Shown here: positions 19,973 through 59,589 of the stretch, piece after piece
How positions within the stretch are numbered: the stretch's first letter is position 1
Layout of the letters: every line of letters begins with the position of its first letter
NCBI GenBank assembly: GCA_964187785.1
Contig: OZ076411.1
Span: 24,614,001-24,678,000, forward strand
Direction: 5' to 3'
DNA from: Amphiscolops sp. MND2022
Taxonomy: Eukaryota
Length of the DNA stretch: 64,000 nucleotides
Notes under the pieces: generated by a model
What the model was told of the DNA's origin: nothing
Seen by the model: the letters and a program-made list of their open reading frames with translations, nothing else
Databases searched by the model: none
Translations under genes and position numbers: made by a program

Positions 19973-20100
19973 CTGGCTGCTGGATGATTGATCGGTTGCC
20001 CGGTCAGGCTGTTCCCCCGTTGGAGGGGTGTTGTTCGTATCTTCCGTTCTTTGGTAATTGATGGGCTGATCACGAATGTTTGTGGTAATTGTCAGTTATA

Positions 20101-36650: not shown

Positions 36651-37440
36651 AAGCAAATTTTTCACTTTTACATTCAATACGACTCCCTTTACTACTTTGG
36701 ATGAATTTTCACTAACCTTGAATGAGTAAAAAACAATGCTGTGCTTGATTTTATTGATTGAAATACGGTTGACTGAGGAAGATGTTTTGGAGCAATTGAT
36801 ACTGGTAGATACCGAACCATGGAATCAATTCAGCGGCAGACTTGACATTTTGAAAAGAGTCTACTTCAATTGATCATGAATTTTTTCAAACAGAGTAGGA
36901 AAGTTTAGTTTCTGAGGAATTATACTCTCGTTTGTTGAAAATAAACTGAAGGACCATGCGCAAAAGCTTATCATTAACGGCAGCAAACAAACTGTCACGG
37001 CATGAAATGTCACCCATGACAGTTCTCAGTATGCATAAACTATGTTGAGTTGTTGAGGAACTCGTTTTGTGCGGACTCTCAGAAAATCAATATGCCGAAA
37101 ATCACTCAATGGAAGGAACTGTGAGTTTTATTTTGTAAGTCCTTCATCAGAATAGAGTTTAAAAACGTAACGAAAATTTTATCTGAAAAAAGTTGTCTTC
37201 GAAAACAACCAAACTGTGCCAAAAAACCAAAATTATAATAAACTTGTTTCGGTCACTTGGACCCGTTTGAGTGAAAAGCCGACAAACAACCACTCTAATT
37301 GTCGGGTTTTGATTATTGAAACGGAGACTGAAAATAACCAATGAAGCAAGTCAGCGCAGGTGTTCCACAAAGTTTCGAGTAGGTCCTTTCCCTTCTTCTG
37401 ATTTTCACCAAGGTCTTTTTCAAAACACTTGAAAATTACC

Positions 37441-39080
37441 TGTCGCAGGCGGCCGCCTGCGATGGCAACCTGTATACCATAGACCACAGTCTGCCAATTG
37501 CCCTACCCGGAACATTACCTTTATAACTACAAGGATAAATAACTTTGAGAACATTATTTCATTTAATATTTGCAACACATGTAAACCAATTTATGTATTT
37601 TATTTGTAATATGATTGATGTTTGACAGCAAGCTATACTGACAGGCAGAAAGGAAACGAGTTCAAATGTTTGCCTGTTAAGTATAGCTAGCATAGCCGCG
37701 CACGGCATATTAGCCAATCATAGCTCATCTTGTTTTATTTGTAGTTGTAGTAATGCATTCACTTATTAATCAGAATGGACCGTCACGGTCACTTGGCCTA
37801 AGCGGACTAATTGCATTTTGTTGCTATACTGAGTTGCTGTTAAATAAATAGAACAAAGCGGATGCTGTCTTAATGGCTGAACGGCCTTACTTGTCCAAAT
37901 GTCGCTAGTGCTACTGCTAGAGAAATAAGGCCCTATGCGGCCAGCGGACTAAATGAGTATTCTCATTTGTTAATATGATGAAATCGATGCTATTATTGAT
38001 ATGTTAATGAAATACGTGTTATGTATTACTGAGTGTTCAACCTCATGTAAACGTTAATATGTAGTGTTACTTCCCCTGTTTAATATGATAATATGGGGTT
38101 AAATGGTTCCTCGCAACAATAGACCGTGTAGGACCGCCATGAATCATTTTGCATGTAAAACTGTTGCTTACATGAATTTGTATATCTGAACATTTTGACC
38201 TATATGCAACGTGGCCCTGTTAGGCGCTTTGATTTAGCCGCCTATATAGGTCCACACTGACGTCATGTAGCTATTTATAGTTCTGATGTATCTATTTTTA
38301 GCCTGTGTGCTATTTTTAGCAGCATGATCATCAGAATTGCGGACGTCATGCTGTCTTGAGTATATATATATGCCCAAGTTAGCCCACAATTTCAATGATT
38401 GATACGATACGGTTATTATTCAGCTATTCTTTTACTGAGAGTACAAGATTCACTGTAAACCCAACAAACATTGTCCACAGGAACAATTTACTTATTTTCT
38501 CCTGGAAAGATATTTTCAATGCCGTCTACAAGAAAACAAAAGGCTAACGCCAGGAGGTCGAGAGAGTTAGACATGTTGTCCGACTACGGTAACATGGACG
38601 TGATGCTAGGCGAAGGTAATTCTAACTCTATAGAAAGAGAGCTAGATAGTCTCATTAATGTCCCTGAAGGGCCGCAAGACTTCAGGTCATTTCCTAAAAG
38701 GGAAAATTCATCTCAAGAAAATGAGATTAGAGATATTGATAACAGAAACGAACCAGTTAGAGAAAGAAGACTAATAGAATCAATTATTATGTTGTCTGGA
38801 GAAATGAATGCTAGAATGTCTCGTGAAATGGAAACAATGATGGATTTAATGCAATCACAAATCAGTAGCGCTATTAGCTCTGCCATAAGTGAAAGGATTA
38901 TTCCTGAGATACAGAACATGGTGGAAAACTTGCCTTTGAGTCAACCTGGCGCCGGACCGTGTATGTCCTCAAATGAGGATGGAATGAGAAATGTATGGAA
39001 AAGCTCAAATACGAAATTAACAAAGAAGGACTCAAGGTCTGCATGCGATCTGAGGGACCATGTGGACCCTGTTCCTTACA
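37441..39080 (+). repeat. 5' LTR (1640 bp), includes the first ~187 codons of gag
   Basis: TGTCGCAGG...GTTCCTTACA. About 11 substitutions and one TA indel (hand count) relative to 52552-54189. Confidence 0.95.
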
Positions 39081-40222
39081 TGGTGACAGGAGCTAACGAA
39101 CCCCAACAGCACATTCCTGAATTCCTCACAGGACGAATTTACTCCCAGCCCGACCTTCAGAGACAAGAATCCGCGCATGATACAACCCTCGACACAACCC
39201 TACCAGTGGCGGAGCCAGTTACAGCCCAACTGTCGCAAGACCCCATCAACCGATTGGCAGATGTCCTGGTAAATCTCCAGAACAAACCACAGTCGATGAC
39301 AATTCGACCAGTCACGACGAACCCTATGACATTTGACGGCAAAACAGAGAAATTCGAATTGTTTGAAGATTTATTTCATACAATGATAAAAATGCAACCC
39401 GCTATGACTGAACAAATGAAAATAAATCATTTTCATTCATTGCTCAGAAAAGGGGCCCTGCAAACCTTCCGAAATATAAACTCTATAAACCGTCAAACAC
39501 TGGAAGACGTACTTGTCATTTTTCGCCGCAAGTACGTTAAACCAGAGTCCCAAGCCACAGCCAAGCACAAGTGGCACAGACTCATTTTCGATCCCAACAC
39601 GATGAAACTACCCGATTTTCTCGAAGAACTCAATCAGGGTGCCGAGAAAGCCTTCGGGGAGAACGCCAAGAGTATGATCGATAGCCTCTTATATGCTAAA
39701 TTACCCCCAAAACTCAAAAGATCGGTGAATATGGCCCGACTGGAAAACGGGACCTACGAGGAGATTGTGGCACATTTAGAAAGAGAACTCGAATTAAACG
39801 CATTAGAAGAATCTGATGACTTGCCAATAGCTACAATGGCTTCATCGTCAGGAAAAGCACGAAATCTACTATCCAATGGCATCGACACCAACAAGAATAA
39901 CAAATGCTCATACTGCAAGGCTGAAGACCATTTCTGGAAGAATTGCCCAAAACTGAAAAAGAAGAAAGAATCAGAGGCCAAGAATGGCAAGAAGCCTCAA
40001 CGCCAAACTTACCCAGAATGTCCCACCTGCAGCAAAACCAATCATCCAGCAGAGAAATGTTGGCGCGGTGCTGGGGCCCACCTTCGTCCAAAACGAAATA
40101 GACAGGACTCCTCAAAAGACACGGAGCCCTCAGAGGACGAAGGCACTCGTACCAAAAACGAAAAACCCACCACATCCACATCAAACCAGTCCAATTTAAA
40201 AAAGACTGATTCAAAAAACTAA
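38519..40222 (+). CDS. gag: Gag polyprotein (567 aa from the first ATG)
   Basis: Intact ORF with capsid-like MTFDGKTEKFELFEDLF region and two CCHC knuckles, CSYCKAEDHFWKNC and CPTCSKTNHPAEKC. Confidence 0.93.
   Translation: MPSTRKQKANARRSRELDMLSDYGNMDVMLGEGNSNSIERELDSLINVPEGPQDFRSFPKRENSSQENEIRDIDNRNEPVRERRLIESIIMLSGEMNARMSREMETMMDLMQSQISSAISSAISERIIPEIQNMVENLPLSQPGAGPCMSSNEDGMRNVWKSSNTKLTKKDSRSACDLRDHVDPVPYMVTGANEPQQHIPEFLTGRIYSQPDLQRQESAHDTTLDTTLPVAEPVTAQLSQDPINRLADVLVNLQNKPQSMTIRPVTTNPMTFDGKTEKFELFEDLFHTMIKMQPAMTEQMKINHFHSLLRKGALQTFRNINSINRQTLEDVLVIFRRKYVKPESQATAKHKWHRLIFDPNTMKLPDFLEELNQGAEKAFGENAKSMIDSLLYAKLPPKLKRSVNMARLENGTYEEIVAHLERELELNALEESDDLPIATMASSSGKARNLLSNGIDTNKNNKCSYCKAEDHFWKNCPKLKKKKESEAKNGKKPQRQTYPECPTCSKTNHPAEKCWRGAGAHLRPKRNRQDSSKDTEPSEDEGTRTKNEKPTTSTSNQSNLKKTDSKN
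39081..39092 (+). promoter_or_regulatory. Primer-binding site, tRNA-Leu-like
   Basis: TGGTGACAGGAG immediately follows the LTR and matches the typical tRNA-Leu PBS TGGTGTCAGGAG at 11/12. It is also coding (M-V-T-G in gag). Confidence 0.75.
40213..40219 (+). promoter_or_regulatory. -1 ribosomal frameshift heptamer A AAA AAC
   Basis: Canonical X XXY YYZ motif in the gag frame directly before the TAA. A -1 slip gives KKLILPRLQICDR, the pol frame, which has no early ATG of its own. Confidence 0.85.
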
Positions 40223-40224
40223 TT

Positions 40225-43200
40225 TTGCCACGACTCCAAATATGTGACCGAATGTCGATACGACAATACGTCATATCAGACCCTGCTAACATTACCTACA
40301 AGCAATCACAAAATGACATCAATGGGACTCCATCGACTGTCTGGCAGCAGCAGATGGAGGAAGCATATACTGAAACTCAATATATCACAAATAGTGACCA
40401 CCCATACTTATACCGACGTAATAGCCACACGAAAGACTCTGAAACCCAATTCCGACCCTTACAAACTGTCGAAGACTATAACCCTCACTACTATGACCCT
40501 GAGTACGGCAGAGACCCGTACTGGGACGATGACATATACGACAAACAGAACTTACAATTCCGAAACGATGATTACCCTCCTACGGACGATGAAGATGATC
40601 CTGAGATTCTAGATAACGCACTGTCCCGGGCACTCATCGAACTGTGGCAACCAAATTTTGAGGCAATCAATGATCAGCCTCATGCAATAGAGACACAGGC
40701 CGCATCCGGCCTCCTAGATGAGACGGCCTTCATACATGTCCTTGTAAACAAAGAGGGAGAACCGGCATACATACCCCTATCAACGAACCTCGGACTTAAA
40801 TACAAAAAACGGATGCTATATTTCCCAATGGACTTTGGGGAATTGACCATAGACGGACTTATCGACACTGGAGCTCTGTCAAGTGCAATACCAGAAGCAG
40901 ACCTCAGGAAAATACGCTTACTAGCGCCTCAATCCATAGTCAAAGAGGGACCTGCGCCAACATTCCAAATCATGGTCGCAAATGGTCAATTAGAAACCCC
41001 AAAGAGCACTGTTGAACTCAAGTTCGAAGTTGGAGACATTGAATTCCACGAAATCTTTATAGTGATGGAAAAACTGACCGGCCCCATTATAGGACTAATG
41101 TTCCTTCAAAGGAATCACACAGTCCTGGACATGCGACAAGGCATCCTTAACTTTCCCTATTTCTCTATGCAACTTAAAACGGCTGACCACAAATATTCAA
41201 ACGTCTTGGAACCTATACTTAACCCAGACGATGTTACAATACCACCCAATGACCGTACTGTAGTAGAGATCAAATCTCAGATATATAATGAAAATTCGGT
41301 CACAGGGGTGTTACAACCCAGTGATCTTCTCCACGAGGAGAGCGACATCACATTTTGTGCCGCAATAGTCACGTTGACTAATGGAAACGTCAGCGTTCAT
41401 ATTAACAATTTCTCAGACCAACCTTACAAGCTCAAAAAGGGACTACACATAGCGAATTTTTCAGTACTAACGCCGGAACAGATGAAACACGTTAAACCAA
41501 TAGACCCGGTGTCCACTTGGCATCTTCTCAACGAAAATGAAGAAGACGCGATCTATTACGTGAGTAGTCTACTTAAGGCTAACAGAAACAATGACCAATA
41601 CGAACAGTACTGGTTTCCAACCCCAGAGAATCCAGGGGACGAAGATTCCCACACTCCCATCCAACGACGAATTCTCCAGGAATTACGCAATCTACAAGAA
41701 GTTGAACAGCTGGACCCTCAAAACGATGAGGAGTCACGACATAAATTTCTTAGCAACTTTGACTGGAAGGACTCGATGCTACAACAGCACGAAATTAAAA
41801 AGATTGAATCGCTCCTAGTTGAATACCATGATATATTCGCCAGACACAGATTTCACATCGGGATGAATGAAAAATTCACGGTCAAACTAACCCCCAAGGA
41901 CGATTCGCCCGCATATAGCCAAAATCTACCCACCCCAGTCAACTTAAAAGAGGACATCCTCGTTGAACTGGCCCTTTTACACAAATATGGCATCATAACT
42001 ACACTGCCATTTTCTAAATATGCCAGTCCCAGATTCGCACAGAAGAAGCCGAATGGGAAACTGAGACTTTTGGTCGACCTAAGGAAAATCAATAACCTTA
42101 TTTCGGACGACTACATAAACAACAATCATCCAGTTAGCACATTGACGGACGCCGCACAGCATATGGCAGGAAAAAAATTATTCTGTAAACTTGACTGTTC
42201 ACAGGCGTACCATTGCCTTCCAATGGCGGACCAAAGGTCCATCGAGATGCTTGCGTTCAACTTTGCGAGCCGCACTTTCGCCTACAGAAGACTTGCCCAG
42301 GGCCTTAGCAGAGCATTATCAGCATTTTCAAGCTTTATGCGAGAAAACCTTGATAAAGTTATTAAAGCAGATCAATGTGCCCAATATGTCGATGACATCG
42401 GCATAGCTGCCAACGACGCCGATCATCTCATCAAAATTTTGAAAGCAACGTTCGAATGTATCAGACCTTAAGCTAACAATGCACAAATGCCATTTTGGGG
42501 CGACAGAAACTGACTTCCTAGGAAGAACAATTACTCCCGAAGGAGTCAAACCACAAAAGGAACAAATAACAACCTTTCTGGAAAAGACCAAATTCCCCAA
42601 ATCCAAAAAAGCCCTGCAGAGATACCTTGGTTTCCTCAACTATTACAGGAACTTTATACCAAGATTATCTGAGAAACTAGCCCCCTTCTTCCAACTCCTC
42701 AAAAAGGACGAGAAGGTACTCGTGACCACGGAGCTAGTACAACAATTCAACGAAATTAATCGAGATCTTGACAAATGTAGCCAATTGGCCCTGAAGCAAC
42801 CTCTCCCAAACAAACAGCTAGTCCTGATGACAGAACCTAGCTTTACAGCGGCAGGCTACGCGATACTTACCGAAGACCACCCAAATCAAAAATTCACTTC
42901 TGTCAAAAAATCGTATGCTCCAATAGCATATGGATCAAAGACGTTCACCCCATCACAACTCAAAATGTCCATATACGCCAAAGAATTCTTAGCTATATAT
43001 TATGCATTCAAAGAATTTGGACACATATTCTGGGGAACACCCAAACCGACCACCATCCTCACGGACAACAAATCGGTAACGGGGTTTTTCCAAACGAAAA
43101 TAATACCTCCAGCGCTATGGAACGCGTGTGACTACGTTTTACAATTCAATTTTATCATTGCCCACATTCCTGGCAAAAACAATACCGCGGCGGACTATTT

Positions 43201-45415
43201 ATCTCGAATGGAAATGGATCCTAAAGAAAAATTAGTCCTGAAAATCCGCGAAGATGTGGAAACACGGCCCATTGAGGTAAATGTCCAATCAGCTGGCGTA
43301 TCAGAAGAGGAGCAAATTTTCTTCACAGAGGATGATGGTGAAACAGAAGCCCAAATTTGGGAACGCAAAAAACAAAGCCGTACCAATCCAACCGACCAGG
43401 AGGTCGTAATCCAGATAGACGCAATAACTGAAAATATAGTTGATGAAATTACAAACTTTACACAAAAGTTGCGCCGAACGAATCAAATACTGCTCGAACA
43501 GTCTAAAGACCCTACTTTGCAACAACTCAAAGCAAAAATACAGAACGAAGATTATTCTGAAGAAATTCTCCAACAGGACATTCGATACAAACACTATCTC
43601 AACAATTTGGACCGAATAGTCCTTAAAGACAAAATAGTCACGCGACAGTACTATGATGAAACTGGACAAATCAAACACCACCAAATTCTCTTACCAAAAC
43701 ACCTATTGAAAGAACTTTTAAACGCATTGCACGGCACCGCGCACAAGCATCCCGGCATATCAAAAATGCTACAGGAAAATCGTCAGAAATACTATTACCC
43801 AGGTATAGCAAAACACGTCAAAAAATGGGTAGAGGGATGTGAAACTTGTGCAAGGGACAAACGTGTTCCAAACAACACAATCACCCCTGAGTTGCTCAAC
43901 TTGCCTGAATGGGACCTCGGACCGGAGGATGCAATGCAAATTGATTTATTACCAAATCTACCAACAAGTGGAGGCTACCAAACCGTGATGACAGCGATAG
44001 GTGTTTTCTCAAGATACCTGTTTGCCTACCCGTTAGTAGAAGCTACCGCTTCAAACACAGCAAAAGTTCTGATTGACATCATGACAAAACATACATATCT
44101 GCCGACAACAATCATCACTGACAAAGGAACTGCTTTCACGTCAAAAAATATCGCAGAAATAACCGAAATTCTCGGAATTACACTAAGATGTGCAACGACT
44201 AAACACCCGCAAACAATCGGCAAACTAGAGAGGACACACGCCTCTTTAAAGACTAATTTGAAGATGGCCTCAGGGGAATATCGCCGGCAATGGCATAAAT
44301 ACCTACCACTGGCAGTACTCAATTACAATACCACCTACCACTCCAGTATTGGTTGTGAGCCAAGTAAGGTCTTCCACGGACGAATTCCCTACAACGTCCT
44401 AGATCATAAACTTGGAAATAATCCTAATAAAGATTTCTTGCCTACTACGGAATTTGCGGAAGAATTACAACAGAGAACACAAATTCTCATTGACAAAACG
44501 AAGCAAAATATCATGCAGTCATACTTGAAATACAAGGAATACTATGACCGGAAGGCCAAGGCAGCTCCCCTTAGTGAACAAGATTTTTGCTTTATTCTGC
44601 AACCCAAAGCAGATAATCAAGGATCAAAAATACCCTTTAGGGAGTACCGCTGGATCGGTCCCTACAGAATTGAAAAGGTATTACCTAATGACAATTACAT
44701 TGTTAGACGGTTAAATACAAATAAAACACAGATATTACACCGGATTCGTCTGAAAAAATTTGTTCCAAACACACCCTTAGAGGACAAATATTCCAAAGAG
44801 AAATTGCAACCAGATGAAGAAATAATCATTCCGCAAGATGATTTATATACCATCTCTTGGGAAGCAGACTTTGATTACCAAGTCTTCGGGCCGAGACGGG
44901 ACGATAACACGAATGAAGAATTACAAATTGACAACGACGCTAGTACTACTACTCGTGATTACGTCATTGATGAAGACGCTGATCACAACGCAAGAAGGCC
45001 GGGAACGGCCACCAGTCGAGACAGCACAATTACGCGAGACGCAAATGACGTCACCGAAGGGAATGAAAATGAAGCAAGACCGAGTACGGCAAATAACCGA
45101 GACGCGCGTACATTGAATGACGATGATGACGTCAATGACAATACTGCAAACGACAAAAGAAACAGTGAAAATGAAAGGCCGAGTACGGCCACAAGCCGAG
45201 ATAACCAAACTTATGGCGACACGCCTACTGAATTGCACAATGAAATTGATGATAGTACTAAACGTTCTCCTAAAAGAGGGGAGGATGATCCCGTGCCCGG
45301 AATATCGGATGATGAAAGAAATGAAAAAATAGAAGGAAATTCAAGCCCTAGAGAAGGGAAATATAATCTTCGACCTAACCCCACCCCCAACTATACTGAC
45401 GAATACAGATACTAG
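40225..45415 (+). pseudogene. pol: Pol (protease, dUTPase-like spacer, RT, RNase H, integrase) broken by one frameshift at ~42470
   Basis: LIDTGA, LRLLVDLRKIN, YVDD, LMTEPSF (expected TDAS), HGTAHKH...CETC, integrase MQIDLL / ITDKGTAF / GKLERTH. Split into ORFs 40225-42471 and 42479-45415, apparently by a small deletion in ECIR-[KAG]-LKLTMHKC. Confidence 0.93.
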
Positions 45416-46750
45416 TCAGAAATGTTAAATTATGTCCCTATTTATTTTACTGCCCAAGAAGGCATGTTCTTTACTGGGACTACTCTGACTTTTGACTCAA
45501 AAGAAACTAACTATATAAATACAGAGACAAGAAACAGAACTCAAATTTACAAATAAAAAGTCTACAATGGCAAATGTACAATATGTAGATTTAGTCTTTA
45601 GAGCTACCTTCTTTTGGATTTTCTTCGGCCTTTGAAGTTTCAGTGGGAATTATACTTCCAAAGAAAGCGGGCTTCTGAGAACTCCCAGATTCACGAACAA
45701 CTTTATGGCCTGCTGTGGATGAAACTGAAGAGCAACGTGAAGGGCCGGCAATTACCTTGACAGGAGTAGGCTTGAGGCCTTTAAAAGTCGTCATTAAACT
45801 CTTCTGAAAGGCTGAACGCCCAAAAGCATCCACGTGCGTCCAGGGATCCCCTGCGAACTGACCAGAACTAAACTGACTATCCATTTCGCGAAATTTGGCA
45901 ATGGAACTCTCGGAGGTGCAGTAGCTGACGGACTGAGAACAATTGGCCAAATAAGACAGAGCCGGTAAGAGCATATCTGTGAAACGGCATTTGGGCTTGG
46001 ACGTATCCACTTCATGGAATTTAATAGCTGGAAGTTCAGTACCACTCTCAGTAAGGCAGAGGCAACTAAGCCGAAATAAGTGAAACAAACTTTTGCGACT
46101 GCGTAAGGCAGGAAGGGCAACGAGAAAACCGACCATATCTTTCATTTGGCCGGGCACGTCCTTAAGCTGAGGGAAATTAGCTCGAAAGTGATCCACGAAT
46201 TCCATGTATTCGTCTCGATAATCAGCCTCTGAAGAACGCTGTACCCATCCGCGAAGGGCAAAGGTCTGGAAAAGGGCTCCAAAACAGAACGTCACTTGCT
46301 CCATTGACAGGGAAACCAGAGTGTGGGGATCAAAGCAAGCCAAGCCGTGGACAATGTCAGCTGTAAGATGGACGTCACGAAGTATTGTCTCGAGCAAAAA
46401 GACGAAGTACCCTCTGGCATTCGTCGCAAAATTATCCCTTTCGGCAACTAGCAGACAACTAAATTCATTGGCACTAATGTTAGGGTCACTGCGAGACTGA
46501 CGGATTTTGGCCTTGCAAACGAGGTCGATGTCGGTGACAAGCTTCAGCCGGTGCAGGAAATCTCGGCAAGATAATAACTTTAAATCATCAGGGCACAAAT
46601 AAAGCATTCCAGTCCAATCCATGTCGCCAGGGATACACTTAGGAAGGACGGCCCGTGAACAAAGTTTTCGTAGGAAGCGACAAAATTGTCCGAAAGTGAA
46701 GAAGGATGCATCGGCTTGCCCAGACAGACTGCGTTCGAAGCACTTGACGT

Positions 46751-46814
46751 CTAAACACCACATATATAGCGGGGAATCAGAGGAAAAGAGAAATGACCAA
46801 AAGGTCATACTTAC
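46751..46814 (-). other. Spliceosomal intron 3 (64 nt)
   Basis: GTAAGT...pyrimidine-rich...GTTTAG, phase 1. Joins EIFGLIVRD-Y to VKCFERSL in the 409-aa ORF frame. Confidence 0.7.
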
Positions 46815-47203
46815 AATCACGGACTATGAGACCGAAGATCTCCAACTTGATAGTGAAGTATTCATCCATCAGAATCATCCACTCAAGACTTTGTGGCTGA
46901 AAAGGTCTATGGATAAATCCTCGGAGTGAAAGTTCAAATAACGCTTAGGGAACTACTATTCTTGAAACCATAAACGGAATTTTGACCAGGAGGTGGAAGA
47001 CAAAACCATAATGTTCACGCTCAACATTAGCTGTAAAAGCCTAATCAACTGAACAATAGGAAACTCACCCTGCCTCGAACTCCCTGTCCGGATTGGGAAG
47101 GTGCATCTTTAGTCATGAAGTCACGAATGTTTGGCCACTGTGCAACAATTTCCCCACATAAGGCTGGAATGGTTTGCAGATTCAGATCACATGTAGTAAT
47201 GGC

Positions 47204-47317
47204 CTGAAAAATACACAATCATTGCCTGTATGCAACTCTGACGTTACCCATCCCTCACTCCTTCACTTGTACAACCAGTTGTTCAGTGCTTAGAAGATAA
47301 GATGAGAAGAAACTAAC
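47204..47317 (-). other. Spliceosomal intron 2 (114 nt)
   Basis: GTTAGT...TATTTTTCAG, contains two in-frame TGA. Joins CPNLST to AITTCDLNLQ. Confidence 0.65.
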
Positions 47318-47435
47318 CGTCGAGAGATTGGGGCAGTCTAACATCCAAGTTTGGCTAAGACCGTTGACGAGGAAAACGGTTAAGTACTTGACTTGAGAGA
47401 AGATATCGATCTTTCCAAAGAAACATTCGTACTTC

Positions 47436-49571
47436 TGATGCATGAGTTTTGGCAATGAAAGCACCTCGAATCTGAAGGGATATTGCAGGGAGAACTTGAA
47501 AAGGTCACTTCGGTCAAGGGTTTGCAACACGGCGGAAGGACAGCCGGACACGCTGACTAAGTTAGGCCCGACGGAGACGAAGGACAGCAATCGTGAAATG
47601 GAACCGAAGAAGTTCCCAGGGTACGAGGAAGCCAGTGGGTGTCTGCACAGCTCTATCCGCTGGATGACATCCTCCCGCCAGAAACGTACGGCCATGTAAC
47701 AGAAGCCTTTGCGGTTCGTAAACTCCAGAGAGTAAATGCCTTCTGTGGTGATCTGTCCTGCTATATCTTCAGTGCAACGTAAGAAGACGTGATGGAAGAT
47801 TTTCTGGAAACAAAATTAATATTGTTAGCACGGAACTTCCAAAAGGGTCACTCTGGCCAGGGAGTTAATGTAATACTTACAGTGAGGTTGTCAGATCTCC
47901 AATCGAAATCGGAGAAGAACCCTTGGTGGCTAGTGAAGGTTCCGAATTGTGTCCACAGATTTCTCAGTAGGGCTAAATCACCTCCGTGTGGGGCAAGGAG
48001 CCCGATCAAGGAAATTTGGGTAGTCATTCGGAGTTCATCTGGACTGGATGTTCCTCCCATTGTTGCAACGTAATCGTCGTAAAATGGAAACTTGTCTCCA
48101 ATATCGACGAGGGGGGCATCAATAAAAAAACTCTTCTCTTTCTCCAGTTGTAGAGGAGTAAGTATTTAATCGTCCTTCCCTCGGACTTGGTGGGTCACCT
48201 TGCCAGTTGTAGCATCTATTTCTCTGAGGTGTTCATACCTCCATTTTTGGTCACGTCGCAGGTGGCCTTGAGTCTTGTAATGGCGAAGGTTCTCTCGGGC
48301 GCCTTTAGAATATATTGATATGTTTGTTTTACATATCTGGCAATAGAATTTGTAACGATTATGTAAGGGATCGAGGGGTCCTGAGACAAAAAGCCTTGTC
48401 CATTGGATGCCTTTAAAGTAGGCATCCTTCATGACTTTGCCTGGTTTGCAAAGCATTCTCCTCCGCTTACGAGGAGGACTAGAATCTGCCCCAACGGGGG
48501 CTTGATGCATGAGTTTTGGCAATGAAAGCACCTCGAATCTGAAGGGATATTGCAGGGAGAACTTGAAAAGGTCACTTCGGTCAAGGGTTTGCAACACGGC
48601 GGAAGGACAGCCGGACACGCTGACTAAGTTAGGCCCGACGGAGACGAAGGACAGCAATCGTGAAATGGAACCGAAGAAGTTCCCAGGGTACGAGGAAGCC
48701 AGTGGGTGTCTGCACAGCTCTATCCGCTGGATGACATCCTCCCGCCAGAAACGTACGGCCATGTAACAGAAGCCTTTGCGGTTCGTAAACTCCAGAGAGT
48801 AAATGCCTTCTGTGGTGATCTGTCCTGCTATATCTTCAGTGCAACGTAAGAAGACGTGATGGAAGATTTTCTGGAAACAAAATTAATATTGTTAGCACGG
48901 AACTTCCAAAAGGGTCACTCTGGCCAGGGAGTTAATGTAATACTTACAGTGAGGTTGTCAGATCTCCAATCGAAATCGGAGAAGAACCCTTGGTGGCTAG
49001 TGAAGGTTCCGAATTGTGTCCACAGATTTCTCAGTAGGGCTAAATCACCTCCGTGTGGGGCAAGGAGCCCGATCAAGGAAATTTGGGTAGTCATTCGGAG
49101 TTCATCTGGACTGGATGTTCCTCCCATTGTTGCAACGTAATCGTCGTAAAATGGAAACTTGTCTCCAATATCGACGAGGGGGGCATCAATAAAAAAACTC
49201 TTCTCTTTCTCCAGTTGTAGAGGAGTAAGTATTTAATCGTCCTTCCCTCGGACTTGGTGGGTCACCTTGCCAGTTGTAGCATCTATTTCTCTGAGGTGTT
49301 CATACCTCCATTTTTGGTCACGTCGCAGGTGGCCTTGAGTCTTGTAATGGCGAAGGATCTCTCGGGCGCCTTTAGAATATATTGATATGTTTGTTTTACA
49401 TATCTGGCAATAGAATTTGTAACGATTATGTAAGGGATCGAGGGGTCCTGAGACAAAAAGCCTTGTCCATTGGATGCCTTTAAAGTAGGCATCCTTCATG
49501 ACTTTGCCTGGTTTGCAAAGCATTCTCCTCCGCTTACGAGGAGGACTAGAATCTGCCCCAACGGGGGCTTG
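47436..49571. repeat. 1067-bp tandem duplication inside the antisense gene (47436-48502 / 48503-49569)
   Basis: Duplicate ORFs offset by exactly 1067 (47442/48509, 47789/48856, 48166/49233). TG microhomology. At least one substitution (ARENLRH vs AREILRH). Confidence 0.95.
48871..48947 (-). other. Spliceosomal intron 1 (77 nt; duplicate at 47804-47880)
   Basis: GTAAGT...GCTAACA(branch)...TTTTGTTTCCAG, phase 0/0. Joins ...SDNLT to KIFHHVFLRC...YMAVRFW in frame. Confidence 0.8.
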
Positions 49572-51803
49572 TGCCTGCGAAAGAGAAGCTAAAGGACGGT
49601 AATCACCACTGCTGTAGCTGCTGCCTGAACAAGGGGTCAGTATCCTGGCTGGATCATGTTGATCTACCGCCATGTCGAGAGTCTTGGAAGCGGAAATGAT
49701 AGGTGGGCAGCCTTCGGACCCAGTCTCGATGTTCCTCATGTCCTCATCAGTGTCCATTGCCCCGCTGGTGTAGCCGTCACTTTCGATTCCCGTGCTCTCA
49801 CCTCCAGAGCTGGACTCGTACCCGGGGCCGGGAGTGGCAGACCTGCGAGGAATATTTCGCGAGGTACGCTTGTTCAGAGGGATCCCCTCAGTTAACTTTA
49901 TCAGTAGCGATTTCATCATGTGGAATGACGACAGCACTGACTCATCAGCTATGGTTCTCAGCACGCCATGAACCTGACTTTCACTAAAGGCAACAGTTGA
50001 ATGACCGGCTGGCAGCTCGACAGGCACGTTCTTTGTGAAGAACTTACGGATAACTTCTCTCCCGGTTGGTGATAGGTTTCGTTCAGTCGAAAGCATCTTG
50101 TCCCGATAGGCAGCTTGTTCAGCATCACTATTCCTTGAAGACTGCTGCAAATCCTCGTCAAGGCTTGTGAATAAGTCAGGATCAAATGAGAAAGTGCCTA
50201 ATTTAGTGGTAGGCAGATCGACTCCAGAACTGTCGTACAACTCTCCCGGGTCACTGGTATCAGAGTGCAAAGCCCTACACTCAAGAGTTCTTGTTCGGGA
50301 TTCTTCACTATTGCCCGGGACCGGCTGTGGTGCTTTGGTAATTTCTAAAGTTATCGACTCAGAGACTTTAGGAGCTCCATGTGTGTTTTCCTCAGCCTCA
50401 GGAACTTTGGGAGCCGCGTGTGGATCTTCTTCAAGGACGGTGTCAAGGGGTGTTGTTGATGCACCTGGAAACTGTGAGACAACTTTCTCAATATAGGCGC
50501 TTACACTCTCGTCAGTTGAGTTGGACGCCTGGGATTCGGGTCGCACTTCTTTTTCTGGCACATTTTGGAATTGGGCCGGTTCATGTTCTTGTCCCTGACC
50601 AATGGGAGCAATGGTAGGATTGGTGGATTCTGGCAACCTCTCTTCGTTAGACATCTCTAAATGGAAAGAGACAAATTTTAGCGGGTAGCTTCCTGAATAT
50701 GAATCCATGAGACCGCTTTACAAATCTTCTAGAAGTAAAATTGAAACATACGGCAAAACGCTTATGCTCTTTGAAACAAATGGACAGGAAGTATTACGAG
50801 CGTGAACAGGTCCTGATCAAACCTATTTCCGTTCAAAAAGAAAAGACCAGATAGCTAACCTGACATTGCAAAAGATTTGAATCGGATGTAGTCCAGAAAG
50901 ACAATTGACAGGAAGATGGAGAAGGGAGACTGATGCTGTTACGAAGAATAAGGCACTCGGACCCCAAGTAGGAAATCCAACTTCAAAGAGAAGTCGTCTG
51001 CTGTCCGAGTATGGCCAAAGAGTAGAAGGCTGATAGTCCAATAGTGAACTTGATAATAATAAGTAACGGACCAGAAGACTAACAACTATACTAAATAGAC
51101 AATGTATAAATACGGAAGTGGTTAGAATTTGAATGGATAAAGTAACAATTGAATGAATGACGAAGATTGCTGAAAGAAGAGTTGGAGTTTGTGGCAAACT
51201 GGAATTGATGTCAAACAATTATACAATTATAGGTGTCATTTTGTGGATGGAACCTGCCAGAGAAATCCACAAAGTTATCCTCAAAATCTTATTTTACCAC
51301 GGATCTATTATTTTACAGTTATTTCATTATTTTATTTATTTCCTTATTTGGAATATTATTATTTCGTCCGCCATTTCGGAATGCGGATAGCAATGGCGAT
51401 TCTTATTGGCTATCGCGGCGATGAGCCGCGCGTGGCCTCAAATCTTGACTATTGGCTCTTGAAAGTCTCAAGTGGATGTTGAGAGCTGATAAACACTTAA
51501 AGGTGCCATTGATGTCTTCAAGCCGCATTAGGCAGACTGCTGAAGTAACGATGTAAACAAAGCGGCACGTTGGGGTCATCAAAGGTTGTTTGGAAGGAGT
51601 TATCGATATGAATGTTAACAGGAAGGCAAAACCCCGGGAAAGGAGTCACGGGTTTCGAAGTAAAAATCTTAAACGAAATCAAGAAAAGAAATTGTCATTC
51701 TCTCTCTTAAAGCCTACAAGTGCAGTTGGTCTTACAACTGAAATTCATAAAGTTGACTTCAATTTTCTACAAAATTGCGAAAAAACTGATAAAAACGCGA
51801 TAC

Positions 51804-52637
51804 ATGGCTGATAGATACCCGCAAGACTTTTGTGGCGCTGCGCCCCGAAGGATACAGCTAGTATATCTGTCCAGTGATGAAGAAGAGGAAATGGACGCAT
51901 TTAGTACTACATCCGTAATGGACCTCCAACTATCGTCAGAAGATGAGGAATACGACGATGAGATCTTGATGATGGCACAATGCGTCGAAATGCAACTGTC
52001 AACGCCTATACCTGTCCCTGGGTCTTCTACACCGAAAACGGACCGCCCTAACCTATTGAACAGGCCGTCTGAAAGCAAAAAGCCTAATCTGACACACAGC
52101 CCTAGTCCCGTCCCAGATCAGTCTTTCTTTTCATTGGGAAGGGGAAAGGGCCCGATAAGGCGTGATGATCGCATAAGGAATAACCACCCGATAAAGTTAT
52201 GCAGCGGACTAATCCCTCTGGTGGACACGCCAATGTCACCTCCCCCGGAAGAAAGAGGGCACTGTAGTTCTTTTTTCGACAACTATGCCGAGCGGCCAGA
52301 GTCACAACAATCTCTCGACGGAATTACAAATCATTTCCAAGGAATGGGACTCAGTGGGTCGGGGGCATTAGTGAACTACTCAGACTGTGTAATATGCGGG
52401 AAATCGACAATGCAAATTCAGCAAGAAGCAGTTGCGGACTACCTGGTCAAGACGGCTATTCCCGGAGAAACAGCACTACAAGTCGAAGCGCGTAAGAGAG
52501 CCTTCATTGAAGGGATGCAGGTTGGCACATTCTTACTTCTCCCAGGGGGAGTGTCGCAGGCGGCCGCCTGCGATGGCAACCTCTATACCATAGACCACAG
52601 TCTGCCAATTGCCCTACCCGGAACATTACCTTTATAA
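51804..52637 (+). CDS. Accessory sense ORF (277 aa from ATG), acidic N-terminus, Pro/Ser-rich, CxxC, unknown function
   Basis: Open frame 51720-52637 with ATG at 51804. Reads across the PPT and stops 86 nt inside the 3' LTR. No signal peptide or transmembrane segment seen. Confidence 0.7.
   Translation: MADRYPQDFCGAAPRRIQLVYLSSDEEEEMDAFSTTSVMDLQLSSEDEEYDDEILMMAQCVEMQLSTPIPVPGSSTPKTDRPNLLNRPSESKKPNLTHSPSPVPDQSFFSLGRGKGPIRRDDRIRNNHPIKLCSGLIPLVDTPMSPPPEERGHCSSFFDNYAERPESQQSLDGITNHFQGMGLSGSGALVNYSDCVICGKSTMQIQQEAVADYLVKTAIPGETALQVEARKRAFIEGMQVGTFLLLPGGVSQAAACDGNLYTIDHSLPIALPGTLPL
52544..52551 (+). promoter_or_regulatory. Polypurine tract
   Basis: AGGGGGAG immediately precedes the TGTCGCAGG start of the 3' LTR. 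Confidence 0.85.
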
Positions 52638-54189
52638 CTACAAGGATAAATAACTTTGAGAACATTATTTCATTTAATATTTGCAACACATGTAAACCAA
52701 TTTATGTATTTTATTTGTAATATGATTGATGTTTGACAGCAAGCTATACTGACAGGCAGAAAGGAAACGAGTTCAAATGTTTGCCTGTTAAGTATAGCTA
52801 GCATAGCCGCGCACGGCATATTAGCCAATCATAGCTCATCTTGTTTTATTTGTAGTTGTAGTAATGCATTCACTTATTAATCAGAATGGACCGTCACGGT
52901 CACTTGGCCTAAGCTGACTAATTGCATTTTGTTGCTATACTGAGTTGCTGTTAAATAAATAGAACAAAGCGGATGCTGTCTTAATGGCTGAACGGCCTTA
53001 CTTGTCCAAATGTCGCTAGTGCTACTGCTAGAGAAATAAGGCCCTATGCGGCCAGCGGACTAAATGAGTATTCTCATTTGTTAATATGATGAAATCGATG
53101 CTATTATTGATATGTTAATGAAATACGTGTTATGTATTACTGAGTGTTCAACCTCATGTAAACGTTAATATGTAGTGTTACTTCCCCTGTTTAATATGAT
53201 AATATGGGGTTAAATGGTTCCTCGCGACAATAGACCGTGTAGGACCGCCATGAATCATTTTGCATGTAAAACTGTTGCTTACATGAATTTGTATATCTGA
53301 ACATTTTGACCTATATGCAACGTGGCCCTGTTAGGCGCTTTGATTTAGCCGCCTATATAGGTCCACGCTGACGTCATGTAGCTATTTATAGTTCTGATGT
53401 ATCTACTTTTAGCCTGTGTGCTATTTTTAGCAGCATGATCATCAGAATTGTGGACGTCATGCTGTCTTGAGTATATATATGCCCAAGTTAGCCCACAATT
53501 TCAATGATTGATACGATACGGTTATTATTCAGTTATTCTTTTACTGAGAGTACAAGATTCACTGTAAACCCAACAAACATTGTCCACAGGAACAATTTAC
53601 TTATTTTCTCCTGGAAAGATATTTTCAATGCCGTCTACAAGAAAACAAAAGGCTAAAGCCAGGAGGTCGAGAGAGTTAGACATGTTTTCCGACTACGGTA
53701 ACATGGACGTGATGCTAGGCGAAGGTAATTCTAACTCTATAGAAAGAGAGCTAGATAGTCTCATTAATGTCCCTGAAGGGCCGCAAGACTTCAGGTCATT
53801 TCCTAACAGGGAAAATTCATCTCAAGAAAATGAGATTAGAGATATTGATAACAGAAACGAACCAGTTAGAGAAAGAAGACTAATAGAATCAATTAATATG
53901 TTGTCTGGAGAAATGAATGCTAGAATGTCTCGTGAAATGGAAACAATGATGGATTTAATGCAATCACAAATCAGTAGCGCTATTAGCTCTGCCATAAGTG
54001 AAAGGATTATTCCTGAGATACAGAACATGGTGGAAAACTTGCCTTTGAGTCAACCTGGCGCCGGACCGTGTATGTCCTCAAATGAGGATGGAATGAGAAA
54101 TGTATGGAAAAGCTCAAATACGAAATTAACAAAGAAGGACTCAAGGTCTGCATGCGATCTGAGGGACCATGTGGACCCTGTTCCTTACA
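52552..54189 (+). repeat. 3' LTR (1638 bp) carrying a second copy of the gag N-terminus
   Basis: Direct repeat of 37441-39080, followed by the TSD TTACC. ORF 53628-54215 is gag residues 1-187 running on into the flank (PVPY-ITEATRRR*). Confidence 0.95.
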
Positions 54190-55292
54190 TTACCGAAGCA
54201 ACACGAAGACGCTAATGGGTTTTGTATTGAAGTTCGTAGCACTGTGTGCACAATGCGACTTATGAGAACTCGCAATTATTCACTGATGTTTGAGTAAAAA
54301 ATATGCTTCAGCAAAGTCGTTTTTCAAACATCGACACCACAGCCACGGGGAAGCAAATGAAACAAAAATCAGAAAAACTAAATACAGCTTGTAGGAAAAA
54401 TTGTGGCTAATTTTTTTTCAAGAAAACTGTTGGACTCTCGGTATCTACAAATGAAGAAAGAAGTTTGTAAAGAGAATCTTTTGAAGCATACTTGTTGGAA
54501 CGTTTACCGTCTATTTTTGCGAGGGATAAAAAGTATTTCAAGTTTCCAGAAACTGGTTGATTTAATTACATATGACATACAAGTTTATGACAAGAAACTC
54601 TTTTCTTCATATACATGATCTGTACAAAAGTGAAAATCATGACGAAACGCGCTAATTTTTGCCTACAACTGGGTCATTTCGCTCGATTTTCACTTCAAAA
54701 TGGAGGCTAATCAAAGAAAAACAGTCGATATGATGATACGAAAAACAGCTTCTGAAATAGCATTTTGTGTGCCACTTTTGAACTGTTTGTGAAAAGTTTC
54801 AATACCAAAAGATATGGAATATTAGACAAGTAATTATTTTTGGAAATAAGTGTATTGGATAAGTAGATGTTTCTGAAACTTTTCACTAATCCGTCGAAAT
54901 TCTTTCCGAATATCAAGACATTCTAGAGAAAGAACGACTGAACTTTTGTCTAGTAGAAATCTCAAATCATTTAAACAGATGGTGAAAGAAGAAAGCATGA
55001 AATATACGATACTAATTTAATACTTTTGAGCTATTGGTAGTATTACTATTAGCAAAATTTCGAAATCTTCTACTCGCAGCCTGCCATATAATTCTGTAGA
55101 ATTTTGAGCTTGTCCGAAACATGTAAAAACATTTTCCCAAAAATCAAGCTATATTTTAAATAACCCTAAAATGGAATGTGAAGTAGATTATGTGAGTGAA
55201 ACCTCCTCCCCACTGATGTGATGAAACTCAACCATCCTTTAAATAGCGAAAACTAGAATGTTGATGTGATGATTGTGTCGCAATAATTAGTC

Positions 55293-55481: not shown

Positions 55482-57999
55482 CTTTTCTCTCTTGGTTACA
55501 AATTAAACTAATTGTATGAAAACGATACAATTCAGAGAATGTGACAACTTTGAAACTGATGGCTGGTTTAAAAATTAACATGTTTTTTTTGCGATCGAGA
55601 TGAACTTTTTATACGACGTTTTACCAATTTTATTCTATTTTGCTCAAGCGTAGAATGCGTACACCAAGAAGTAGTTACAACCTTAGTATTTTATAAATAC
55701 TACATCTTTTTTATTCAAGACGTCAGGCTCTGAGGAACCTCTTAAAAATCAAAGATGCAGTGGTACTGTGGTAATTTGAACCTGGAGGAGGAGCTTTTTA
55801 ATTGCAATACTTTCAAAATTTACAAATTTCATGTCTTCAAACTCAAAAAACTCTTTTTTTGAAGCTCCCTCTAGATTCTAATTTTAATTCACTGCATTGG
55901 CTTCCAATGTAGAAAAGCTATCAAAAGAATTGACACATCCAATATGCACCTCCGATTGAAACAACGGTTTTGACTCACACATTCCAAGCGAAAACCCAAC
56001 AAACTTTGAAGCAATAAGGTAAATGGTACTCGGAGCAAATCTCCTATTCTTACAAGACGCTTTCGGGAAAATTTGGACACCCCACTCTCGAAAACTGGAC
56101 TGTTCATTGTAAGTCATAATATAACTCAATGCGTCGGATAGAGAATTGAAAAACATCTGCCTTTAGCAGGGACTCCTTAGGCTTAAAACTTTTTCCGTAA
56201 TGAAAACCCAAATAAAATCTCAAAGGGTCTCTATTGTTAAATGAGAAAAAACTTCGAAAACCGTCTCTCAATGCCAAACCACGCTAACCACGAGGCAAGG
56301 TCACTGAACAGTTATGATCTTCATTCAGTATTCAATCACTTGAATGTTTTCGGTCTACTAGTTATTCACTTCTCAAATTGTAGGCTGCTGGATATCCGTT
56401 GAAGTGAACAATTAATCATTGGATGCTATTCGCTCTCGGGTTTCAAGTCAATATCTTCCACAATTTCAAGAGAAAAATCACGTCAAAATTTTTTTGAAAA
56501 ACTGAACGAATCACATGCCCTACAGAAGCAATGAGAAACTGAGAAATATTTTTTCCTTGACTTTTTACATTTTTTAGGTTGTTTTTCAAGGAAAACATAT
56601 TTCCGACTCCCAAGGAAACCTCTTTGACTTTTTTTGGGTCCTGTGAATCTGATGAAGGTTTTGTGGAATAATTGCGGAATCCACTCAATAATTTGGCCCA
56701 CTCAATAATTTGCGGAAAAGACCCTTTTGGCTCAGTGCGACTTTTAATCGAAAAAAAATTTATTTGATCAAGAGGTATCTCCTTCACTTTCACAAATGTT
56801 TTCGGTTTGAAATTATTGCTCCTTTTTGGGCACTACGAGCTTTTTCCGAAGAAAATATTTGTTTTTTTTACAGTTGGCGAAAAACCGGTTTTACAGTCTA
56901 ATTGGTATCCTTTCGGGCAATTTCTGGCACTGTAAAATTGGTAAACTTTTCACAATAGTGTCCTTTGCAAATTTATATTATAAAATTTGGTGTTTTTAAA
57001 CGTGAGCGGGCGGCGACTTGGGCCGTTTCCGGCTTGTTCGATGTTCTGGTAGCACCGAAAAAATTACAATGGGGACCACTGTTAGATCAGAACCCAAAAT
57101 TCTTGTTGAAGCAATGACAATGAAAACATGAGCATCCAAATGTCGAAAAATTTTGGAAATTTGACTTTTCAGAAATTTCAGAAATTTGATTTTAAAAAAT
57201 ACTTTCGACCACAAAATTTTTTGGCATCACGATCAGGGAATGGAAAAATAATAATTGCAATTTATTTGATATTCAAAAATGGCACAATGAATTAATTACA
57301 ATTATAGAAAATCCCCAATTCAATTGACCAATTAATTTGCAATTGATATCAACGAAAAACATTTTTAAAACTTAATTTATAAAACATCACAATCAAAAAT
57401 GATATTCTGAACAAGTTTTTTATCCGGCTGGAATTACGTTGGTATTTGCCAAGTATGCATTCAATTCATTTAGCTATTCCAGCCGGTGGCAGGACAAAAT
57501 AACCAAGGTCTAAATAGCCAATGTCAAAATAGCCAATGCCATAATATCCAATATGCCAAAATAGCCAATGTCAAAATAGCCAAGGCCAAAATAGCCAATG
57601 CCAAAATAGCCAATGCCAAATAAGCCTAAACCAAAACAGCCAAAGTGGCACTATAACCAACGAGAACAAGGCAGCCCAGACTAAAGCAGACTAATTACAT
57701 GTAGAGCTCCAAGTAATGTCAGGCTTGATTAACGTAATTGCTTTAATGACATTCTAAGTGAACAATTTAATTTTTTGATAGCTATCGCTCATTTAATCCC
57801 TCTCTGATCCAAATTCTTGTGTAATTATAAAATTATATAATATATGAAATTAGTATAAGTTAGAAAAATGAAAATCTGTTTTTTCTCCCGAAATAAGAGG
57901 AATTGAGAGCCCAAAATTTGACACGTGAATCAGGGCGATATTGAGTTTTTTCGTTAGCCCCCCGCCCATTCCTGATTTCTTAACTCCCGGAAATAGGGA

Positions 58000-58150
58000 A
58001 TTTCGGGACATCGGGAACTTCCGTCTACCTTTTTTTCATAAAATGACAAAGACTAGGCTGGAACTCGGATAGTTCAACTATCCGAGTTCCAGCCTAGTGT
58101 TTGTCATTTTATGAAAAAAAGGTAGACGGAAGTTCCCGATGTCCCGAAAT
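58000..58150. repeat. Palindrome with 75-bp arms, 1-nt spacer (C at 58075), one mismatch
   Basis: Arms 58000-58074 and 58076-58150 are reverse complements except for aaaGacta vs tagtGttt. Confidence 0.97.
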
Positions 58151-58239
58151 AATTACTTTGGCCTAGTGGTCAGAGAACTGCTTCTGAAGTAAAGTTTACT
58201 TCAGAAGCAGTTCTCTGACCACTAGGCCAAAGTAATTAT
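58149..58239. repeat. Perfect palindrome with 45-bp arms, 1-nt spacer (G at 58194)
   Basis: Arms 58149-58193 and 58195-58239 are exact reverse complements. It abuts the previous palindrome. Confidence 0.97.
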
Positions 58240-59589
58240 GTGTTTAAAGATCGTTCCAGGTATTATATCAAAACACGGTATTAGCGTTTAGGAAATATGA
58301 TTGACAGTTGCTTCATAGTTTCCATGCACGAAAAACGAAAAGCGTAATAGATTTTTGAACTTTCTTCACTTTCAATATTTGTCATCAAGTCAATAAAAAT
58401 GATCGGCATTTTGCATGCTTTGACTGTCAATCAAAAATTTTGACAGGTCTTCACTGCTGTATGTGCTTTTTCTTTTTAAGTGCATTCAATGTGACCGAAA
58501 ACGCACCAGTTTTATCAATCAAATTGTTTTAGGTCATTACATTGATCTGCTGTGAAAGTATTGTCAGGCATATATGTGCGATCCCAAAGTTGCGTCATCA
58601 ATTGTTTCATTTGTTCAAACTAATTAGTTCAAGGCGCTTTTCACGTGTGCGCATCTGTTCTCTCGCGTTGGTTATGTCAAATTGGCTATTATGTCACGTT
58701 GGCTATTTTGGCATTGGCAATTTTGTCACGTTGGATATTTTTGCATTGGCTGTTATGACATTGGTTATTATGACTTAGGTTATTCTGACATGTAACCATT
58801 CCAGCTATGCATAATTAGCTATATAGATATGACCGAGAAATAGGCGCAGAAATTACAATTCAATGGTTTTCATTGCCTATTTTCCAGTCAATTAATTGAT
58901 GTGTTAAAAATATCCAATAAATAAATTTTCACTGAAAAATTGCAATTCATTGTTCATCAATCAATTTTTCCAACCCCTGATCACGATTCCCAGAGTGTTT
59001 AAAAGGGTAGTTTTTGGGACTTCCGGCAAATGCTGATTTGATATGCAAGTTCTCGTTGGCAGCATCAAGTTGTTCTTCAGTAGGTCACATTGGGGGTTGT
59101 GATTCATGTTTATCTAGGCTTCATGTAGCATCAGATTGAAAATCTAAACTAACAATTTATTTGAGTGTTTGGGAGGTTTGGGAATGTATGATAGTACCTA
59201 CTGACATGATAATTACGCCTGTTCACACGCAATTTTGGGTTCAAACAGTCTTACATTCACTGAAAATCGGAACTAATCAAAAGCGTTTGTTTTATTCTGT
59301 CTTATTCAAACATCGATTTCGAAGCTAGAAAACGAAGACCATAAAAATTCTTGCTCAAAAACCAAAGTGGGTTGCTCTTCAAGAGGTCTTAACTGATGTA
59401 TAATTTGTAAGGGGGGCTTAATCTTCAATAGGTGGATCCGAGGTTGGGGTGGGGATTGGGCGGTGTTGCGGGTGTCGGTTATGAGATTCTTTTCAATTTG
59501 AATTAGTTTTCATTGTATCAGAATTTGAGGATTGTTACTCCAGAACACAAATGCGTGGCAAATATTGAAATTGATGTCTGCTGTCTCAC

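Follow-up and report, generated by a model that had tools for sequence, protein, structure and literature searches.

What is a gene with four introns doing, written backwards, inside a retrotransposon? The question is raised by a stretch of 64,000 nucleotides from Amphiscolops sp. MND2022 (assembly GCA_964187785.1, contig OZ076411.1, positions 24,614,001 to 24,678,000; hereafter the window), in which the interval between pol and the 3′ long terminal repeat (LTR) of a Ty3/gypsy retrotransposon holds two genes: an antisense gene, here called the cargo, and a sense gene, ORF3. A preliminary description had read the cargo as a catalytically dead hAT/ZBED-type transposase kept by the retrotransposon in a DNA-binding or regulatory role. 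We find that the cargo is a real, conserved, multi-exon gene that is accessory to an active gypsy clade; its transposase origin and catalytic death are likely, and a regulatory role is plausible. The explanation that we favour, at a probability of about 50%, is that the cargo derives from a hAT transposase, has likely lost DNA cutting and binds DNA in the nucleus to activate the element or shield it from silencing, a function that we infer.

The peptides on which the preliminary description rested (PPRKRRR, the zinc finger, GIYSLEF..YMAVRFW, NLVSVSGCPSAV and LFHLFRLSCLCLTES) are all present on the minus strand. The gene span given there, 45591 to 49600, marks a real locus but misses the start of the gene, which begins about 1.1 kb outside it, at 50654 or at an alternative start codon at 50708, and which has four coding introns (77, 114, 172 and 64 nt in the window copy). 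When sister copies with 97–99%, 78% and 73% DNA identity were aligned, variable blocks bounded by GT...AG alternated with conserved blocks, and in 39 close sisters the exons measured approximately 1707, 486, 135, 82 and 1160 nt. All eight splice sites are intact in 36 of these 39 sisters, and the frame is open over 1166–1189 amino acids (aa) in 28 and broken in 11. Exon lengths of 486/495, 135 and 82 nt are constant, whereas introns range from 62 to 179 nt. Twenty more divergent copies have identical junctions wherever the copy is intact enough, automatic picking having missed at least one junction in about half of them, mostly decayed ones. We infer that the cargo is spliced as a five-exon gene with four GT-AG introns; no DNA copy in the genome matched the spliced exon 1–2 junction pattern, a result that is uninformative on splicing. 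The acidic N-terminus of the protein, approximately 370 aa long, is probably disordered.

The window copy is a dead member of a living family. Owing to a 1067-bp tandem duplication, which repeats the nuclear localization signal (NLS), the finger, intron 1 and most of exon 2, the NLS, the finger and the first RNase-H-like motifs are present twice, and both units contain a stop codon (49233–49235 and 48166–48168). None of the 39 sisters has this duplication, which alone could be an assembly artefact, though its units differ by one base; an assembly artefact as the source of the cargo gene itself is ruled out by copy number. One sister, L124, has an internal duplication of its own that spans the end of pol and the end of the cargo.

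Across the 1.07 Gb of genome searched, an eight-codon pattern lying directly before the finger occurred at 886 places and its reversed control at none. We examined 79 loci, namely 39 close copies, 20 copies at 45–80% protein identity and 20 at 30–40%, the last set being taken from one contig. In all 79 the cargo is antisense to pol and bounded by gypsy sequence. Conversely, 39 of the nearest 40 integrase copies come with a cargo (38 with a listed cargo exon nearby, one of these beyond a duplication, and one more by inspection), and the exception has a deletion that runs from pol into the LTR. Non-synonymous relative to synonymous substitution (dN/dS) over residues 380–1130 was 0.04–0.06 in four subfamily pairs and 0.13 in a very close pair, with synonymous sites saturated in five pairs of the comparison. 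The finger has the lowest dN, its dN/dS being 0.01–0.02. At the level of sequence, these comparisons demonstrate long-term retention of the cargo by the retrotransposon, in agreement with the preliminary description; a passive nested insertion is ruled out because the gene is under purifying selection and fixed in position. In addition, LTR pairs were 99.4–100% identical in 16 of the 17 elements tried (two on short overlaps), and the cargo-bearing family, judged by its copies, is recently mobile and still inserting. A wider search returned 653 representatives matching cargo exon 5, all of which may derive from this or a close species.

To trace the origin of the protein we relied chiefly on AlphaFold models of two separate parts. 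The first, P0045, is a natural open frame over exons 1 and 2 that reads through the in-frame intron; folded with 93 sequences (mean predicted local distance difference test score, pLDDT, 63), it shows three strands in a hairpin arrangement, followed by helix, strand and helix, located at YSLEF, VRFW and LVSVSGC. The strands at 241–273, the helix and the strand at 299–303 have local pLDDT values of 64–92. The arrangement corresponds to an RNase-H-like catalytic fold, and nearly all top rows of the fold searches were RNase-H-like. With Foldseek, the first nine rows for P0045 among 350,542 chains were all the hAT transposase Hermes (E 0.009–0.09), and with VIA-align Hermes ranked first of 48,161 (Z 6.8, root-mean-square deviation (rmsd) 4.8, 140 residues aligned, including the helix before strand 1). 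For the second part, exon 5 folded alone (mean pLDDT 57), Hermes ranked fourth in VIA-align (Z 5.7, rmsd 9.1, 133 aligned) and was the only listed row to cover the whole model, collinear with Hermes 226–582. A complex prediction of exon 2 with exon 5, which made no use of alignments, scored 0.00 and gave no verdict.

Two weak profile matches run in the same order. The best match to 111 Tip-type hATs paired cargo residues 578–651 with 294–372 on the first catalytic strand, with a score of 21.8 that none of 30 column shuffles reached, although this was one of ten such tests; a second, in the insertion domain, paired 904–967 with 609–674 at a like offset (E 0.045, against a 52-sequence subset). 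Exon 2 alone matched that subset over 14 columns only. Spacings in the cargo are 59 residues from the first to the second Asp position against a hAT median of 64, 261 against 249 from the Trp to the Glu position, and 125 against 94 from the second Asp position to the Trp (n = 46). The transposase-type fold of the preliminary description is supported by three fold searches of two parts and by two collinear Tip matches, but none of these scores reaches significance by itself and Hermes shares its place with a Mutator transposase. On the predicted models, an origin from an RNase-H-fold transposase is highly probable, and derivation from a hAT in particular is probable.

Has the active site been lost? 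Motif patterns matched 72, 69 and 71 of the 79 loci for strand 1, strand 4 and the third acid, respectively, and unmatched loci were left uncounted. We take the catalytic residues of Hermes to be D180, D248 and E572. The second Asp position (residue 657, at the end of strand 4) is C in 59 loci, S in 8, T in 1 and G in 1, and is thus non-acidic in 69 of 69, which makes an active passenger transposase unlikely. The first, when anchored on the conserved Ser four residues before the hAT Asp, is T in 49 loci, A in 7, V in 6, I in 5, E in 4 and N in 1; it is acidic in 4 of 72 loci, or in 72 of 72 if the register is shifted by two. The third, placed by eye twenty residues after the Pro that opens the last helix, is L, M, F or Y in 71 of 71, a register to which profile tests give no support. 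The replacement of the acidic residues that the preliminary description had proposed therefore stands for the second Asp, depends on the register for the first, and is uncertain for the third. No copy among the 79 loci, down to approximately 30% identity, has an intact D-D-E triad; sister copies with the triad intact were what the preliminary description had named as overturning it. Nor could the hAT CxxH motif be recognized: in 20 rows aligned by eye, position 685 is S and position 688 is K/E/R/H. The landmarks H268 and W319 of Hermes are from PMC4763223, the available part of which reports single DDE mutants of the hAT Kat1 to be inactive. Judged by its residues, the cargo has likely lost DNA cutting. 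Because the triad, CxxH and PF05699 tests all came out negative, it is not a hAT transposase as defined, yet it is likely derived from one.

We propose that a transposase gene entered the interval between pol and the 3′ LTR in reverse orientation, where its introns, being backwards, would escape splicing from the genomic RNA and hence outlast reverse transcription. By the established logic of reverse transcription, it is the antisense orientation that explains why introns persist in the cargo. The gene would be transcribed from a conserved block at its start and then spliced, and PPRKRRR would carry the protein to the nucleus. There, a BED-like finger on an oligomerizing hAT scaffold would bind a short motif common to the whole clade, either an inverted GGAAGT array by the cargo start or one of the few boxes conserved among LTRs. 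Finally, the acidic N-terminus would recruit activators, perhaps together with ORF3, so that the elements stay transcribed. Constancy of the finger while LTRs are swapped suggests such a clade-wide target. Activation is preferred over repression because of the acidic N-terminus and the precedent of transposases, TnpA and VANC; this is the weakest step of the proposal. In the accessible part of one preprint (bioRxiv 10.64898/2026.08.24.746577), transposases and proteins derived from them are described as activators of cognate elements.

The block at the cargo start is a candidate promoter and binding array. In 17 related copies it contains 2–6 inverted GGAA(G/A) motifs against 0.3–0.5 expected, in a shuffle test that was post hoc, the motif having been chosen by eye in the same, non-independent sequences. 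The finger of Hermes, in the part of PMC10368747 available, binds AAG(T/C), which makes the block a candidate site for the cargo finger. A host ETS factor would fit the GGAA(G/A) block equally well. These motifs are, we presume, ETS-like. The block is retained (L019 to L119) in families whose cargos are only 30–40% identical, it has no RNA structure (z +1.7), and the apparent conserved peptide MD..GS.P may merely reflect its DNA motif and a splice acceptor. Boxes common to the LTRs of five families, at window positions 37714, 38292–38319 and 38360, are CCAATCA, CTATTTTTAG (which we take to be MEF2-like), TATATA and GGAAACG.GTTCAA. ORF3, present in 23 of 24 and 17 of 20 loci, has no Pfam match; it has a CxxC and acidic hydrophobic motifs that presumably resemble SUMO-interacting motifs, and the LTR begins with its final ~27 codons. 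A more ambitious version of the proposal, which we consider doubtful, is that the clade has made a complete class II transposase, with its introns and promoter, into a transcription factor of its own, set head to head with a SUMO-decoy protein, and that this two-gene anti-silencing cassette passes between families as a unit and is driving the current expansion of ~900+ copies.

Several results weigh against the reading of the cargo as a hAT-derived regulator of its element. Exchange of the cargo, pol and LTR modules between families speaks against an LTR target that is family-specific in the manner of VANC. A cargo hidden Markov model gave the 111 Tip hATs scores that did not exceed those of their reversed or shuffled versions, the reverse test was blank, and C-terminal profile matches failed to beat shuffles. 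No fold score is significant alone, the models average the low pLDDT values given above, and Z values below 8 are common for unrelated folds. Kinase (pantothenate kinase), Pelota, actin and ribosomal folds lie within 1 Z of Hermes for P0045, and the Mutator-type ISCth4 ties with it in a second VIA-align look (Z 6.4, rmsd 4.3, 120 aligned; Z 4.8 in the first look). For the exon-5 model, Foldseek searches of the PDB and of viral structures gave no hit at E ≤ 0.001. At the active site, residue 596, two before the expected first Asp, is acidic in 72 of 72 loci (E in 70, D in 2), a Glu lies five before the third-acid position in 65 of 71 loci (and, in a wider alignment, in 67 of 123 rows), and acids are common at 1037–1038. 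The invariant acid at 596 and those at 1037–1038 suggest that part of an active site may remain.

A cargo of the same origin might instead act at integration, binding complementary DNA ends or the integrase and ferrying the complex into the nucleus or to selected chromatin. The NLS, the finger and a transposase scaffold would suit end-binding, the cargo is almost obligately linked to pol, and such a role is suggested for plant antisense genes in the part of PMC7264820 at hand. However, the cargo would come from a separate antisense message and not be made with Gag-Pol, and integrases 95–96% identical in DNA are paired with cargos only ~65–73% identical, so that cargo and integrase do not co-vary. 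We regard this role as rather unlikely. As a separate observation, pol, cargo, ORF3 and LTR recombine as modules when L026, L044, L056, L058 and L062 are compared with the window, as in the pairing of a 95% integrase with a 65% cargo or of a 98% cargo with a 66% ORF3.

Less probable is that the cargo has no transposase ancestry and is a host-captured zinc-finger protein with an unrelated RNase-H-like or actin-like domain. The closeness of pantothenate kinase, Pelota and actin to Hermes speaks for it, as do blank sequence tests, those against the PDB and the Tip hATs. Across the sequence searches as a whole, no part of the cargo or of 11 relatives had a Pfam match above cut-off; PF05699 (the hAT dimerization domain) had none at E ≤ 1 in the window exon or these relatives. 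The finger, one Cys of which is kept in 131 of 132 rows and the other in 133 of 134, did not match zf-BED and gave a sub-cut-off C2H2 match alone. PDB sequence searches with five exon profiles reached no better than E 0.15, and a word-based search of exon 5 among longer proteins found none. For exon 5 the ESM Atlas returned unnamed or DUF3684/DUF8348 clusters at 0.94 on only 128–148 shared features, which we took as uninformative. A PF14291 search of the genome gave no match, its controls being equally silent. Against such an origin, the rival folds align over 70–85 residues where Hermes aligns over 140, including the helix before strand 1; the second, separately folded part also points to Hermes; and the finger, strands, Trp and last helix are arranged and spaced as in hATs.

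That the strand-1 acid, with nearby cysteines or acids, still forms a changed, metal-dependent site in the cargo for nuclease activity or nucleic-acid processing is very unlikely. Such a site could draw on acid 596, on the acids at 1037–1038 found in most copies, and on C1033 and C1035, which are kept in 118 of 126 and 116 of 125 rows. Yet there is no acid at the end of strand 4 in any of the 69 loci, CxxH is unrecognizable, and in the model E596 is diagonal to a conserved strand-2 Arg and would fit a structural salt bridge. Highly improbable, finally, is that the cargo works for the host or against rival elements, for instance as a repressor of the hAT transposons of this genome or as a subunit that poisons them, and is merely spread by the retrotransposon, for although hAT elements are plentiful (150 of 150 scored PF05699 candidates pass the cut-off), 0 of 79 copies lie outside a gypsy element, the cargo has no detectable sequence likeness to 26 hAT frames of the same genome, and selection acts across element lineages.

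How does a hAT-derived cargo compare with known systems? In its predicted order, which runs from a C2H2 BED-like finger and a helical region through RNase-H-like strands and the Trp motif to a helical insertion and a final helix, it resembles Hermes, the best fold match of its models, and Tip/ZMYM1-like hATs (DUF4371, PF14291 with PF05699). Unlike these, it lacks D-D-E at the aligned positions, CxxH and a PF05699 match, has its long acidic N-terminus and lives inside a retrotransposon. No hAT terminal inverted repeats were seen among the 25 longest inverted repeats of the window, short repeats not having been specifically searched. The antisense genes of plant Retand, Grande and RIRE2 elements (TRP28, PF04195; Grande gene23) also lie between pol and the 3′ LTR and are present in nearly all copies. 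PF04195 matched neither the cargo nor 11 relatives, and unlike the plant genes the cargo is a ~1190-aa, five-exon gene with a traceable transposase fold. For the Grande gene, its own promoter and a nuclear location are reported, and the origin of the plant genes is called unknown, in the available parts of PMC11963269 and PMC7264820; the word "intron" is absent from PMC11963269.

Like TnpA (Spm) and VANC (VANDAL), the cargo would be a non-catalytic protein that is encoded by an element and activates cognate copies. Whereas they serve DNA transposons in a family-specific manner, the cargo would be a class II protein serving a class I element, and its finger is conserved across families. ZBED, DREF and DAYSLEEPER are host-domesticated transposases; such proteins are single genes, while the cargo belongs to a mobile family and occurs at 886 or more places. 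As in FAR1 and MUSTANG, which are likewise domesticated by hosts, the cargo would keep the whole scaffold with an eroded catalytic triad, and the same preprint, in its accessible part, reports TnpA to be transposase-derived and dead transposases to regulate hosts and DNA transposons (bioRxiv 10.64898/2026.08.24.746577). Captured genes beside pol are also found in rotifers (ORF3 nucleases and esterases) and in planarian Burro, and a dUTPase occurs between protease and reverse transcriptase; within the parts of PMC5408684 and PMC6431247 available, none of the extra genes is described as antisense, intron-bearing or transposase-derived. A full-text literature search, with most subscription papers, Repbase and supplements outside its scope, found no LTR retrotransposon with an intron-bearing, transposase-derived accessory gene. 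The reviews consulted leave the origin and function of antisense accessory genes in LTR retrotransposons unexplained; here one is traced, with moderate support, to a DNA transposase. As the family is still inserting and has many intact copies, the role of such genes becomes testable, including whether retrotransposons carry their own anti-silencing factors. If the proposal is true, one transposon class has domesticated the enzyme of another, and multi-intron genes persist in a reverse-transcribed element through orientation alone.

Table 1. Features of the cargo-bearing element in the window.
Feature	Position	Strand	Remarks
Cargo exon 1	48948..50654	-	acidic low-complexity N-terminus, NLS-like PPRKRRR, zinc finger, helical region
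NLS-like PPRKRRR	49544-49524	-	from the translation
BED-like C2H2 zinc finger	49329..49409	-	C-x2-C-x16-H-x5-H; best-conserved part of the protein
Cargo exon 2	47318..47803	-	RNase-H-like strands: YSLEF at 47734, LVSVSGC at 47560
Cargo exon 3	47069..47203	-	135 nt
Cargo exon 4	46815..46896	-	82 nt; QSLEW at the position of hAT 'TRW'
Cargo exon 5	45591..46750	-	helical insertion-like domain and C-terminal region; helix LFHLFRLSCLCLT from 46088
Tandem duplication, 1067 bp	47436..49569		units 47436-48502 and 48503-49569; one base different
Conserved non-coding block at cargo start	50680..50865		donor-like CAG|GT, TTGATCAGG, 2-6 inverted GGAA(G/A) motifs
ORF3, second accessory gene	51804..52637	+	277 aa; head to head with cargo; ends inside 3′ LTR
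5′ LTR	37441..39080	+	TG..CA, 1640 bp; target-site duplication TTACC at 37436-37440 just before
Primer-binding site	39081..39092	+	begins TGG; identical in 5 divergent sisters
gag	38519..40222	+	DUF1759 E 6e-5, below cut-off
pol	40210..45415	+	protease, dUTPase, reverse transcriptase, RNase H, integrase; domain matches
Polypurine tract	52544..52551	+	
3′ LTR	52552..54189	+	followed by TTACC at 54190-54194

The carrier has all the parts of a Ty3/gypsy LTR retrotransposon (Table 1): TG..CA LTRs, a target-site duplication, a primer-binding site, a polypurine tract and the order protease, reverse transcriptase, RNase H, integrase. No envelope-like gene was recognized in the window element. Its pol is split over two frames (40210–42471 and 42443–45415), and its two LTRs agree at 1627 of the 1638 bases aligned; the alignment has 11 mismatches and one gap of 2 bases. 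Codons 1 to ~187 of gag lie within the LTR (38519–39080, with their 3′ LTR counterpart at 53628–54189) and the frame continues through the primer-binding site; with gag covering one LTR end and the end of ORF3 the other, both LTR ends are protein-coding.

Elsewhere the window holds a degraded, unrelated gypsy element on the minus strand (14763–20095; gag, protease, reverse transcriptase and integrase), a family of 28–31-bp repeats (11843–13165) and a 1748-bp tandem duplication (27369–30867). At 57476–58797, 15-bp tandem arrays form inverted arms with AT palindromes between them, resembling a foldback element or a miniature inverted-repeat transposable element.

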